A stretch of 64,000 bases of DNA from positions 891,946 to 955,945 of the forward strand of contig CAVTOC010000006.1 of the NCBI GenBank assembly GCA_963736335.1. The letters run 5' to 3'. This document shows, piece after piece, positions 37,514 through 40,548 of the stretch (its first letter is position 1; each line of letters begins with the position of its first letter). The DNA is from an uncultured Actinomycetes bacterium (GTDB lineage Bacteria; Actinomycetota; UBA4738; HRBIN12). The notes under the pieces are model-generated. The model worked only from the letters and a program-made list of their open reading frames with translations. It was not told the DNA's origin and did not search any database. A program made the position numbers and the translations under genes.

Positions 37514-37567
37514 TGGGCGAGGGGGAGTTGAACCCCCCACGTCCTTTTCGGATACAGGAACTTGAAG
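37514..37567 (-). repeat. Partial tRNA-Leu: diverged 3' half from anticodon loop to acceptor end (att-like direct repeat of the tRNA at 40465..40548)
   Basis: Aligns base-by-base with the 3' ~52 nt of tRNA-Leu(CAG) (GGGCGAGGGGGAGTTGAACCCCCCACGTCCTTTTCGGATACAGGAAC) plus an identical 19-nt flank CCGAAGCCTCGCAGGTCAG. The 5' half is unrelated. Confidence 0.6.
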
Positions 37568-37836
37568 AGCGTGAGCAAGTGACGGGATAGGGCCAACCGC
37601 GGTCAAGAACGGCCGGTCTCAGGTGCCGAGAAGGATCCGCCCCGCCCGTCGTTGACCGTTCTTGCCCATCCTTTGTCCGAGGCCGCGTCACCACGACGTC
37701 ACCACGATCGGTGGCGGCAGCTCATCCAATGAGCCGTCGGATCTTCCGTCAAGGCCAGAGGGGGTCATAGCTTCGGCCGCTCCCCGGACGCCCCTCCCAA
37801 CAAGCAACCGAGTCCGACCCCCAGGATCGACCTGTG

Positions 37837-37865
37837 TTGACAGCAGTTCTGTCTCGCTGTATAAC
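37837..37865 (+). promoter_or_regulatory. Consensus sigma70/SigA-type promoter TTGACA-17 nt-TATAAC
   Basis: Read directly in an AT-rich patch. The -10 ends ~10 nt before the GntR ATG, so the mRNA would be near-leaderless. Confidence 0.5.
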
Positions 37866-37875
37866 GCCTGTCTTA

Positions 37876-38420
37876 TGGAAATAGATAAAAAGCTCAGTCC
37901 GGGGAGAAGGAAGGTTCGAGTCCCACCCCCGGGCGCGGTCAGCGAGGACGACCGAGCGGCTGCGCGCCGCCCGGCGTCACCGATCGATTTTTGGCTCGAC
38001 CCCGCCTCCGGTGTGCCGACCTACCTGCAGCTCGTCCAGCAGGTCGAGCAGGCGCTACGGCTCGGGTATCTCAAGCCCGACGACCAGTTGCCCAAGGTCA
38101 GGGACGTGGTCGCTTCGCTCGCCATCAACCCGAACACGGTGCTCAAGGCCTATCGAGAGCTGGAGACCAAAGGCTTGACGACCGGACGGCCCGGTCAGGG
38201 AACGTTCATTCAGGCCACCCTCAGCCAGGTCGCGCTGCCGGAACTGACCGCGCTGCACCGGTCCCTCCTCCGTTGGCTGGCCACCGCTGACGCGGCAGGG
38301 CTGGACGAGAACGGGATCGTGGCACTCTTCACCAGCGCGCTGCGGGACTTCCGTGAACGGCGCGGCGGCTCCGGCGACCGTCTTCGCCCGGCAGGCGGCG
38401 ACACGAAGGGCGTCGCGTGA
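37876..38420 (+). CDS. GntR-family transcriptional regulator
   Basis: Winged HTH ...LPKVRDVVASLAINPNTVLKAYRELETKGLTTGRPGQGTFI. ATG MEIDKK chosen just after the promoter. Upstream track extension is junk. Confidence 0.7.
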
Positions 38421-39334
38421 ACGTCATCGAAACCCACAGCCTCGCCAAGTGTTACGGCAGCACGTGGGCCCTTCGCGATTGCACGATGGCCATCCCTGCC
38501 GGGCATGTGACCGCGCTGGTCGGCCCCAACGGCGCCGGCAAGACCACCCTGTTGAATCTGGCGGTCGGGCTAGCGGTGCCGACTGCCGGCATCGTCACGG
38601 TGCTCGGCGGCCGCCCCGCCGGGTCACCGGCCGCACTCGACGGGATCGCGTTCGTCGCCCAGGACACGCCGCTGTACGAGAACCTGTCTGTCGCCGACAT
38701 GCTGCACCTGACCCGCAACCTGAACCACCGCTTCGACCAGGACTACGCCGACGCCCGACTGAGCGAGCTGGGCATCCTCCCCGAACGCAGAGCTGGCACG
38801 TTGTCCGGCGGGCAACAGGCGCAGCTCGCGCTGACCTTGGCGCTGGCCAGGCGTCCGCGACTGCTCGTGCTGGACGAGCCGATGGCGATGCTCGACCCAG
38901 TGGCCCGGCACGACTTCATGTCGACGGTGATGACCGCGATCGCCGACGACGGGGTGTCGGTGGTGTTGTCGTCGCACGTGCTAGCCGAGCTCGAGAGGGT
39001 AGCCGACTACCTCGTCTTGTTATCCCGCGGACGCGTCCAGGTAGCCGGTGAGGTCGAGGACCTACTCGCCCGTCACCGCGTCCTCAGCGGCCCGGCCGCC
39101 GAAGCGAGCCAGTACGCCGAACGGCTGAACGTCGTGCACGCCCGGAGCGGCGGGGCACAGGCGCATCTGCTGACCAGGATGAGCGGGTCGACCGACCCGG
39201 TGCCGCTGGGCTGGCAGGTGCACCCGGTGAGTCTGGAAGAGCTAACCCTCGCGTACCTGCGCGAGCCCGCCGCCGCAGCACTCCCCGGCCCGACGCGCAT
39301 CGGAGACACCCGGCCGTCGGAGGTGGCGAAGTGA
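38417..39334 (+). CDS. ABC transporter ATP-binding protein
   Basis: Walker A GPNGAGKTT, LSGGQQAQ signature, LLVLDEP Walker B. Overlaps the GntR stop. Confidence 0.9.
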   Translation: MNVIETHSLAKCYGSTWALRDCTMAIPAGHVTALVGPNGAGKTTLLNLAVGLAVPTAGIVTVLGGRPAGSPAALDGIAFVAQDTPLYENLSVADMLHLTRNLNHRFDQDYADARLSELGILPERRAGTLSGGQQAQLALTLALARRPRLLVLDEPMAMLDPVARHDFMSTVMTAIADDGVSVVLSSHVLAELERVADYLVLLSRGRVQVAGEVEDLLARHRVLSGPAAEASQYAERLNVVHARSGGAQAHLLTRMSGSTDPVPLGWQVHPVSLEELTLAYLREPAAAALPGPTRIGDTRPSEVAK

Positions 39335-40383
39335 GCACCCTGACCATGCCCGCCCGGCCGACACCCGACGCGGACCTTCGGCCCGTGCTGTGGCGGAACA
39401 TGGCCTGGGTCACCTGGCGTCAGCACCGGCTCGCGTTCGCCGGCGTCCTCGCACTGTTCGGTGCGGCAGGCGTGTACCTGCTGATCACGGGCCTGCGGAT
39501 GCACCACGCCTACGCAACCGTGAGCGCCTGCCGCCCGGCAAGCTCAGGTATCTGCGTTCAGGTAGCCCACGATTTCTTGGACAGCTACGCGCCCGGCGTC
39601 GGCTACGTCGTTGGTCTGCTGCATGTGATCCCGGCCCTGATAGGAGCGTTCGCCGGGGCGCCCGTGCTCGCCAGGGAGTTCGAGACTGGCACCTTCCGCT
39701 ATACCTGGACCCAGGGCTTCGGGCGCACACGGTGGACCGTCGCCAAACTGACGTCACTCGCGGTCGCAGTCATGATCACCGCCGGAGCGTTCACCGTGCT
39801 GGTCACCTGGTACTACCAGCCGCTCATCGGCGCCGGAGACGACAACGGCGCGCTGTCTCCCGCGATCTTCGACTTACGGGGAGTCACGTTCGTCGCCTGG
39901 ACTCTGGCCGCGTTCGCGATCGGTGCCTTGGCCGGCACCCTCATCCGCCGGGTCATCCCCGCGATGTTCGCCACCATCGCGCTGTGGGCAGGGCTCGCCT
40001 TCGCGACCGGGGCGTACCTGCGGGCACACTACGTGGCGCCACTGCTCACCACGAACCCCAACGTTACTGCTCCTGCATGGGTGATCCGGCAGTGGTGGAC
40101 CCGAGGCGGCAAGCCGGCCAGCTTGGACATGATGAATCACACGCTGGGTGCGGTCGACGTCCAAGCGCTCACCCCGGGTGTGTTCCAACCTGGGCCCGCG
40201 ACCCCGGCCAACTTCGGCGACCCTGTGCACTACCTCATCGCCCACGGCTACGTGCTCCTCACGAGGTACCAACCGGGGAGCCGGTACTGGCCGTTCCAGT
40301 GGATCGAGGCCGGCTGGCTACTCGCCCTCTCCCTTGTCCTCATCACGGCGACCGTTTGGCTGGTCCGCCGCCGTTCGGCCTAG
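39331..40383 (+). CDS. ABC-2 type transporter permease
   Basis: 350 aa, ~6 TM. 4-nt overlap with the ATPase gene. Confidence 0.8.
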   Translation: MSTLTMPARPTPDADLRPVLWRNMAWVTWRQHRLAFAGVLALFGAAGVYLLITGLRMHHAYATVSACRPASSGICVQVAHDFLDSYAPGVGYVVGLLHVIPALIGAFAGAPVLAREFETGTFRYTWTQGFGRTRWTVAKLTSLAVAVMITAGAFTVLVTWYYQPLIGAGDDNGALSPAIFDLRGVTFVAWTLAAFAIGALAGTLIRRVIPAMFATIALWAGLAFATGAYLRAHYVAPLLTTNPNVTAPAWVIRQWWTRGGKPASLDMMNHTLGAVDVQALTPGVFQPGPATPANFGDPVHYLIAHGYVLLTRYQPGSRYWPFQWIEAGWLLALSLVLITATVWLVRRRSA

Positions 40384-40464
40384 AGCACTCGCGAGGCTGC
40401 CCAAAGGGTCGACCACGTTCGCCGCGGCGACTCGCCACGCCGAAGCCTCGCAGGTCAGGGACAG

Positions 40465-40548
40465 TGGGCGAGGGGGGAGTTGAACCCCCACGTCCTTTCG
40501 GACACAGGAACCTGAATCCTGCGCGTCTGCCAATTCCGCCACTCGCCC
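40465..40548 (-). tRNA. tRNA-Leu (anticodon CAG)
   Basis: Reverse complement reads GGGCGAGTGGCGGAATTGGCAGACGCGCAGGATTCAGGTTCCTGTGTCCGAAAGGACGTGGGGGTTCAACTCCCCCCTCGCCCA. Leu-type D-arm and long variable arm. CCA not encoded. Confidence 0.85.

Follow-up and report, generated by a model that had tools for sequence, protein, structure and literature searches.

An integrase-less GntR–ABC transporter islet between tRNA-Leu(CAG) and its displaced 3′ part in an uncultured actinomycete

A 64,000-nt stretch of DNA from an uncultured Actinomycetes bacterium (contig CAVTOC010000006.1 of assembly GCA_963736335.1, positions 891,946 to 955,945), hereafter the window, carries an islet of 2.9 kb (37567–40439) lying between an intact tRNA-Leu(CAG) gene and a displaced copy of the 3′ part of the same gene. 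The islet contains a YtrA-like regulator of the GntR family, an ATPase of the ATP-binding cassette (ABC) type, an ABC-2-related permease and ~0.3–0.35 kb of non-coding DNA, and nothing else. A related genome carries the same site uninterrupted. The favoured reading, to which about an even chance is given, is that a recombinase-type event inserted the islet into tRNA-Leu and that the islet, now non-autonomous, resembles the cis-mobilizable elements (CIMEs). An earlier note on this DNA had seen in it the attL/attR signature of site-specific integration; the geometry, the empty site and the ancestral left flank bear this out, while an origin by integrase is only putative.

The intact tRNA-Leu(CAG), a complete gene as already reported in that note, occupies 40465–40548 on the minus strand. 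It is recognized by Rfam (RF00005, 53.4 bits, E=1e-9) and is one of two tRNAs called by ARAGORN in the window (call at 40464–40548); CCA is not encoded at its end. From the discriminator to the 5′ end, alignment shows its body to be identical to those at two related loci, L001 and L002. Local alignment, with which a repeat finder agrees, delimits a direct repeat of 78 nt with copy A at 37489–37566 and copy B at 40440–40516, the 3′ half of the intact tRNA (40465–40516) forming part of the right-hand copy. The alignment has 79 columns with 70 matches, six substitutions and three single-base indels (~89% identity), and its score of 107 compares with a best of 24–29 in shuffled sequence. The two copies are co-oriented, with the fragment located downstream of the tRNA 3′ end. 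On the tRNA strand the repeated unit begins at the first base of the anticodon loop (UUCAGGU) and comprises ~53 nt of tRNA, ending with the discriminator base, and ~25 nt of the flank that follows, within which the 19-mer CCGAAGCCTCGCAGGTCAG is identical at 37489–37507 and 40440–40458. A diverged copy with such a 19-nt flank had been noticed before, and the alignment confirms it.

The displaced fragment itself (37514–37566, minus strand) extends from the anticodon loop to the discriminator, its boundary being the exact 5′ edge of the loop (tRNA position 32). It differs from the intact gene by two substitutions and three indels, and is not recognized as a tRNA by ARAGORN or Rfam. All three indels of the left copy fall in homopolymer runs and could therefore be long-read errors. 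No third or older copy of the fragment is present in the 64-kb window. Around GGTCAAGA-CGG/GACCGGTC, an inverted repeat of 17 nt (82% complementary, 37463–37479 and 37601–37617) brackets the displaced fragment, one arm lying in the chromosomal flank and the other within the islet; chance may account for it.

An empty site in related genomes, the check proposed in the earlier note, was sought at 12 loci from metagenome-assembled genomes (MAGs) of uncultured actinomycetes, with FhaA as anchor (FhaA identity 72–97%). In the 11 of 11 loci on long enough contigs, tRNA-Leu(CAG) is divergent from fhaA and lies ~500–1200 nt upstream of it. L002 is a clean empty site. It holds the TetR, lipase and cyclase genes that lie left of the islet in the window, has no GntR or ABC genes at the site, and reads without interruption from cyclase through a hairpin to tRNA-Leu. 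By blastn, L002 8456–9461 corresponds to window 36536–37566 (91.5%) and L002 9378–20687 to window 40433–51760 (90%), so that 84 nt of L002 align to both repeat copies; the breakpoints match the ends of the repeats, with the islet as the sole difference. Given the uninterrupted L002 site, the islet represents a true insertion/deletion polymorphism, the limits of which are set by the repeats.

The flanks tell the two copies apart. Beside the tRNA end, L002 has the 8-nt flank AGAGGTGG, which encodes CCA, as does the left copy of the window, and not the GGACAG of the right copy, which is a foreign variant. The flank of the displaced fragment (37481–37513, minus strand) comprises CCA (37511–13), the 19-mer and a full hairpin, CUGCGAGGC-UUCG-GUCUCGCAG, which folds in the left flank of the window, in L002 and in L007. 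Since the left copy retains the ancestral flank and the full hairpin, it is a displaced piece of the chromosome. The flank of the intact tRNA within the repeat (40440–40464, minus strand; 19-mer CCGAAGCCTCGCAGGTCAG and GGACAG by alignment) retains the 5′ arm and the loop alone of the native downstream hairpin; folding indicates that this hairpin is lost here, and the similarity to the relatives' flanks stops at ~40433–40441. The right copy arrived with the islet, and the end of the repeat falls in the hairpin loop. As a separate observation, CCA is encoded in the displaced fragment, L002, L003, L005, L007, L009 and L010, and is not encoded at the intact window tRNA, L001, L004, L008, L011 and L012; these two flank types at tRNA-Leu do not track FhaA similarity.

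The cargo had been described as a GntR regulator and an ABC-2 transporter only, and Pfam gives the same inventory. The GntR-family regulator (37875–38420, plus strand, 181 aa; PF00392, 4e-13) has a winged helix-turn-helix (HTH) at residues 49–112 and a short C-terminal tail, Pfam finding no second domain in the protein; gene callers give its homologs 181–184 aa. It is followed by an ABC transporter ATP-binding protein (38417–39334, plus strand, 305 aa; ABC_tran, 8e-25) and a membrane permease (39331–40383, plus strand, 350 aa) with a weak match to ABC2_membrane_2 (PF12679, 1e-5) and a precomputed assignment to PF26999. The three genes are co-directional, with overlapping stop and start codons at 38417–38420 and 39331–39334. 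The best NCBIfam matches are to the Rv1152 family and PmtR for the regulator and to PmtA for the ATPase, all below cutoff (54.8 versus 170, 35.7 versus 200 and 137.7 versus 350 for Rv1152 and PmtR/PmtA). The operon is a YtrA-type regulator–exporter unit at the family level only, these matches falling short of the equivalog level. The composition of the islet is native-like, with a GC content at third codon positions of 0.80–0.87 and a tetranucleotide distance at the 93rd percentile of window-wide segments; a foreign composition was accordingly rejected.

Upstream of the regulator stands the promoter-like element TTGACA-17-TATAAC (37837–37865, plus strand; −35 at 37837–42, −10 at 37860–65) that the earlier note had pointed out. 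It is in the sequence as described, although a consensus scanner makes no call there: the scanner rule demands T at the last position of the −10 hexamer, which TATAAC lacks. The −35 box is invariant in homologous operons elsewhere, and both it and the start region ATGGAAATAGATAA are kept in L013, L015 and L016. A candidate operator, GACAG-N5-CTGTC, overlaps the promoter-like element. The GntR ATG lies 9 nt past the −10 hexamer, which suggests a leaderless or very short-leader mRNA, and the transcript of the operon is probably of this kind. The start of the GntR gene, ATG-G/A-N-N-ATAGATAA, is near-invariant at the nucleotide level (window 37875–37889, L013:375, L015:6467 and L016:6542) and holds a rare ATA codon in a genome of 68% GC; the near-invariance is a hint that DNA or mRNA, and not the protein, is constrained (leaderless start or operator).

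The islet further has a non-coding distal arm of 266 nt (37567–37832), absent from homologous operons elsewhere, with only short and apparently spurious open reading frames (ORFs). Within this arm lies segment S (37650–37713, minus strand), 64 nt that include a tandem CGTGGTGAC repeat with an 11-nt period. Segment S is ~80% identical to L001:9287–9351, 55–120 nt downstream of tRNA-Leu in the genome that is the window's nearest relative on the fhaA side (Smith–Waterman score 78 versus a null of 30 ± 4; blastn 83% over 59 nt, E=7e-11). The window, L001 and L012 each have a single occurrence of the tandem CGTGGTGAC motif, and 22 nt of segment S recur at L012:3852–3873. The remainder of the distal arm has no significant similarity to L001, and a decayed tRNA fragment and a TTCAGAGTT microhomology sought in L001 downstream of segment S were rejected as not significant (P = 0.19 and 0.48). 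Segment S could represent protein-binding sites or a relic of native flank.

Outside this locus the cargo is widespread. Precomputed results list 5347 permease homologs in soil actinomycetes, and the three-gene unit is conserved in L013–L017 and in 80 further metagenomic loci, among unrelated genes. The nearest copies have ~86–87% DNA identity over 37833–40406 only, a stretch that opens with the −35 box and closes shortly after the stop codon. Neither tRNA-Leu(CAG) nor a fragment of it occurs in any of these 85 cassette loci (581 kb), and no flanking direct repeats surround the cassette in L013, L015, L016 and L018, on which grounds a repeat-flanked mobile unit at other sites was rejected. No exact-sequence record of the window permease was found. 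The cargo is an ordinary, common chromosomal operon and not specific to an element. The earlier note had named the same GntR–ABC genes at a tRNA-less locus without repeats as evidence that would tell against integration. Taken literally, the ~86–87% copies are such a case, but they belong to other organisms and non-orthologous loci, which makes the cargo ordinary and not the insertion spurious.

The site has been reshaped more than once. At L012:7961–9849, tRNA-Leu and an 82-nt copy identical to the gene from tRNA position 4 to the 3′ end, located 1.7 kb downstream, enclose an islet of 1.7 kb. The copy is short of the first 3 nt only, and the cargo is an extracytoplasmic function (ECF) sigma factor and a DUF6923 repeat protein, with nothing else and no integrase. 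This cargo has only distant family-level matches to genes of the window or L001, and its distal joint carries a 14-nt palindrome, GAGGGCATGCCCTC. L002 holds a second fragment at 8418–8452, from the base of the T arm (~position 48) to the 3′ end with 14 nt of flank, located between lipase and cyclase; its score of 52 is reached by 0 of 100 shuffles (P<0.01). By its position this fragment makes the cyclase gene alone an islet of 0.94 kb, and the 59 nt that include it are precisely absent from the window at ~36531. An older fragment, composed of hairpin and 3′ end, is located at L002:5882–5934 (P ~0.02). Orphan tRNA fragments thus number one in the window, two in L002 and one in L012, with older cargo downstream and the conserved fhaA anchor on the other side.

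The favoured reading can be set out as follows. The DNA now at 37567–40439 would have been inserted into the tRNA-Leu(CAG) gene, bringing a tRNA copy of its own that spanned the anticodon loop to the 3′ end, along with ~25 nt of flank. Recombination would have rebuilt the gene by uniting the chromosomal 5′ part with the incoming 3′ part, and the original 3′ part, shifted 2.95 kb downstream, would then have decayed. The likeliest agent would be a tRNA-specific tyrosine recombinase acting on circular DNA; not being encoded by the islet, it would have acted in trans or since been lost, and the remainder would be a non-autonomous CIME-like islet between attL- and attR-like repeats. The YtrA-type GntR repressor would be transcribed from its own conserved promoter, which it presumably represses via GACAG-N5-CTGTC until an envelope or compound signal intervenes, and derepression would lead to a co-translated ABC ATPase and ABC-2 permease working as an exporter.

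Several observations argue for this reading. An intact tDNA followed downstream by a 3′ fragment in the same orientation is accepted as the signature of integration at tRNA sites and is used for mapping tRNA islands (PMC4383910). Among Islander islands, 2083 of 3919 are anticodon-centred, the anticodon being one of two main crossover sublocations (PMC4383910). The start of the window fragment at the first base of the anticodon loop, a main crossover sublocation, supports a recombinase, as does the second L002 fragment, which starts at the T-arm base, the second of the two classic sublocations. The clean empty site in L002 and the L002-type flank of the left copy support insertion as such. For the operon, the supporting evidence lies in the overlapping stop and start codons, the conserved −35 box and the Rv1152, PmtR and PmtA matches. 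A tyrosine integrase (PF00589, 3e-19) and a transposase of the rve family are encoded at L084:293–2744 (also in L085), ~3 kb upstream of a cassette homolog that is distant (50%), and this proximity is counted for the recombinase. The L084 contig has 292 nt ahead of the integrase, and neither a tRNA nor an att repeat can be detected there.

Other observations weigh against a recombinase. The islet has no integrase or excisionase gene, as noticed before: Pfam on all islet ORFs gives GntR, ABC_tran and ABC2 only. A phmmer search seeded with the integrases of phages L5 and VWB (control L5 versus VWB, E=1.5e-10), run on the six-frame translations of the window and 98 loci (883 kb), has no match in the window and matches only L084/L085 among the loci. 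No tyrosine recombinase was found within ~10 kb of tRNA-Leu in the 12 related genomes. The islet shows no pseudogene or mobile-element debris, all but ~0.35 kb being operon. No matching attP was seen among the phage and plasmid matches listed or in viral contigs, two exact-pattern viral scans being empty. At the islet side of the anticodon-loop junction there is no inverted-repeat core, only ACTTG/CAAGT, in contrast to the attP of phage VWB, an anticodon-loop site with a perfect 7-bp inverted repeat at the junction. The repeat runs 25 nt past the tRNA into a clade-specific flank. In L001, tRNA-Leu is closely followed downstream by the homolog of segment S, which there occupies the opposite side of the core. 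Fragment starts differ among loci, at tRNA position 32 in the window, ~48 in L002 and 4 in L012. Lastly, the L012 islet is recent, given its perfect 82-nt repeats, yet it has no integrase, and its start at tRNA position 4 is no known crossover site.

Among the candidates examined in these searches, the phage matches listed proved to be phage tRNA-Leu genes and the plasmid matches listed near-full-length tRNA, none being an attP-like partial sequence. The motif of segment S has no match in viral contigs. Leftwards of L001, where an integrase-bearing island was sought, the nearest context, L098, proved to be a different locus. A transposon or insertion sequence was likewise rejected, with no transposase by Pfam, no terminal inverted repeats and a duplication of 78 nt.

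The principal rival, less probable than the favoured reading but a serious contender, is illegitimate recombination anchored by homology and operating without an integrase, of the type known as homology-facilitated illegitimate recombination (HFIR), which would lead to 'haplotype stacking'. Linear donor DNA, originating in a related genome and composed of the fhaA side, tRNA-Leu and downstream cargo (GntR–ABC, then segment S), would pair via the conserved side, and its non-homologous end would be joined illegitimately inside the recipient tRNA, at the anticodon loop. Such a joint would stack the donor tRNA and cargo ahead of the orphaned 3′ part and the older cargo (cyclase, lipase and TetR). 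The lack of an integrase at any islet or tRNA-Leu locus examined, the native-like composition and the variable fragment boundaries (positions 32, ~48 and 4 in the window, L002 and L012) are all consistent with stacking. So are the clade-specific flank of the intact tRNA and the presence, in the far arm of the islet, of a segment found downstream of tRNA-Leu in L001. Moreover, the tRNA neighbour changes almost per species beside an fhaA side that is 72–97% conserved, and L002 presents a chain of cargo blocks split by orphaned fragments, similar to the strings of orphan 3′ ends attributed to HFIR in type VI secretion system (T6SS) and Rhs loci (PMC5361080). However, the joints fall exactly at the anticodon-loop edge and, in L002, at the T-arm base, each of which would be a coincidence of a few percent under random joining. 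The donor haplotype, with the operon natively beside tRNA-Leu, occurs in 0 of the 85 cassette and 12 tRNA-Leu loci. Right-flank identity, on the fhaA side, runs without a recombination breakpoint near the tRNA. The right flank is not significantly native-like past 26–31 nt, a native-like stretch of ~75 nt beside the intact tRNA having been rejected (P = 0.09–0.28), and HFIR is rare where measured (PMC5361080).

Insertion by RecA in the manner of Campbell appears improbable. A circle with the operon and one 78-nt tRNA segment, looped out for instance between repeats in another cell, would integrate by homology and duplicate the segment. The direct repeats of 78–84 nt, the clean empty site and the missing integrase all fit, and the repeat takes in non-tRNA flank, as if homology set its extent. 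Yet this route moves only a pre-formed islet and leaves the first repeat pair unexplained; 50–80 bp is marginal homology for RecA, a non-replicating 3-kb circle has no evident vehicle, and the left and right flank variants are each uniform, with no chimeric tract visible. Less credible by far is an explanation of the partial copy as a chance match, as an assembly artefact or as the relic of a tandem duplication unrelated to the operon. Three indels lie at homopolymer runs, typical sites of long-read error, and the source is probably metagenome-assembled, the nearest relatives all being MAGs. Chance, which the earlier note had envisaged, is countered by the score of 107, against at most 29 in shuffles. 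The copies differ by substitutions and flanks and therefore do not reflect a collapsed or duplicated assembly, and L002, an independent genome, has an exact empty site with breakpoints at the repeat ends. Shuffle scores and the L002 site together refute chance and artefact.

A broader proposal, unlikely as it stands, is that within this actinomycete clade the 3′ side of the tRNA-Leu(CAG) neighbouring the fhaA–pknB cluster is a serial gene-capture site for small (1–3 kb), promoter-bearing, integrase-less cassettes, each leaving an orphan fragment. The cassettes would be GntR–ABC in the window, the lone cyclase in L002 and the ECF sigma factor with DUF6923 protein in L012. The driver would be either a trans-acting chromosomal recombinase, integron-like and with the tRNA as attachment site, or a tRNA-anchored illegitimate route that would be new for tRNA loci.

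On the left of the islet, Pfam identifies a TetR regulator, a secretory lipase and a putative cyclase; the last, a secreted arylformamidase-like protein (36600–37424, plus strand; Cyclase, 4e-37), has a homolog at L002 8520–9341 with 96% amino-acid identity, 66 nt from the tRNA. On the right, a 104-aa ORF is followed by FhaA (41058–41747, plus strand; FhaA_N, 2e-32, and FHA), the chromosomal anchor divergent from the tRNA, and then by FhaB, a PP2C phosphatase, RodA/FtsW, the transpeptidase PbpA and a kinase with PASTA domains. This fhaA-fhaB-pstP-rodA-pbpA-pknB order is the conserved actinobacterial fhaA–pknB cluster, which the same tRNA-Leu also adjoins in Mycobacterium tuberculosis. While the fhaA side is 72–97% conserved, the gene adjoining the tRNA varies in nearly every species, those in L001, L003, L009, L010, L011 and L012 being all different and none of them an integrase. 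In more distant relatives the neighbour of the tRNA is a homolog of the M14 peptidase gene found at 29290–30111 in the window, which implies that ~10 kb of the window (30.2–40.4 kb) is accreted variable DNA.

Further features of the window were recorded in their own right. L002 lacks a 4.4-kb block (30172–34628) whose genes specify a DUF6923 protein, an ABC ATPase similar to DrrA and a DUF4097 protein, with small HicB/HTH-like ORFs besides; neither border showed a tRNA fragment. Over 37 nt, the Walker A sequences of the block ATPase (32878–32914) and the islet ATPase (38512–38548) are 92% complementary. Inside the conserved cluster, 42427–44416 (pstP 3′ end and rodA) is 80–86% identical to L001 and L002, with neighbouring segments at 93–97%; in this region L001 and L002 are about 83–92% identical to each other, and >90% in most sub-windows. 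It looks like an imported or fast-evolving patch. Diverged, in-frame-looking direct repeats lie at 12640–14898 and 56655–57722 (seven copies at ~390-nt spacing and copies at 171/342-nt spacing, respectively), and are probably repeated protein domains in large genes, unrelated to the islet.

By itself the islet is a routine scar, an accessory exporter operon parked at a tRNA gene, and integrase-less tRNA-flanked islets are a known kind of genomic scar. Its value lies in being a small, clean and fully delimited integrase-less island signature with an empty-site comparator, of a sort that standard island finders discard by design. Together with the sibling mini-islets and stacked fragments, it offers a tractable case for distinguishing decayed integrative elements from integrase-independent, tRNA-anchored recombination. 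Many tRNA-adjacent variable regions have no mobile-element genes, and the answer bears on the exchange of small regulator-linked cassettes in soil actinomycetes.

Among known systems, CIMEs, i.e. elements that retain attL and attR and have lost their integration genes, are a described class in the streptococcal systems comprising integrative and conjugative elements (ICEs) along with integrative and mobilizable elements (IMEs) (PMC5704250). With these and with decayed tRNA islands, the islet shares the tRNA gene with a direct repeat of its 3′ end, a content limited to cargo, the lack of integration and transfer genes and a presence/absence polymorphism. It differs in measuring only 2.9 kb, in having no recognizable remnant of an ICE, IME or actinomycete ICE (AICE) module, in repeats that are 89% and not near-identical and extend into chromosomal flank, and in that its mobilization is putative; no cognate integrase-bearing element is known at the site, and none was found in the 12 related loci or in phage, plasmid and viral collections. 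Of the features on which Islander relies (PMC4383910), the tDNA with a same-orientation downstream 3′ fragment and the insertion polymorphism are present, and an internal tyrosine integrase is absent.

The host phylum, the use of a tRNA 3′ part as target and the rebuilding of the tRNA by element-borne sequence are shared with AICEs and with tRNA-integrating actinophages such as VWB. In pSAM2 the identity segment also extends from the anticodon loop to the 3′ end. The AICEs pSAM2, SLP1 and pMEA300 integrate at tRNA sites in actinomycetes (PMC2440964). The islet departs from them in its size (2.9 kb versus 9–24 kb) and in lacking any int, xis, rep, tra or kor module, and from VWB in lacking an inverted-repeat core at the junction. 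The AICE modules for excision/integration, replication, FtsK-like transfer and regulation are absent, and the GntR protein, co-operonic with the transporter, is not of the Kor type.

Arrays of orphan modules at T6SS effector–immunity, Rhs and contact-dependent inhibition (CDI) loci have been attributed to sequential displacement by HFIR (PMC5361080). Like the site described here, they combine a conserved anchor on one flank with variable cargo on the opposite flank; an orphaned 3′ remnant of that anchor has moved downstream with older cargo, several such remnants follow one another (as in L002), and there is no recombinase gene. At the islet, by contrast, the anchor is not a toxin gene: it is a tRNA gene with a cell-division and signalling operon. 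The cargo here is made up of regulator-linked cassettes that are unrelated, and HFIR is likewise a putative mechanism. As regards the cargo, the closest parallels are the YtrA-subfamily GntR regulators with ABC exporters (ytrABCDEF of Bacillus subtilis, pmtR-pmtABCD of Staphylococcus aureus and Rv1152 of M. tuberculosis). The islet operon differs from these by its single ATPase, its single PF26999-type permease, a GntR protein with a 48-aa N-terminal extension and scores far below equivalog cutoffs, but it shares with them the operon layout, in which genes for an ABC ATPase and a membrane subunit follow that for a short GntR protein with a winged HTH and a C-terminal part of minimal size.

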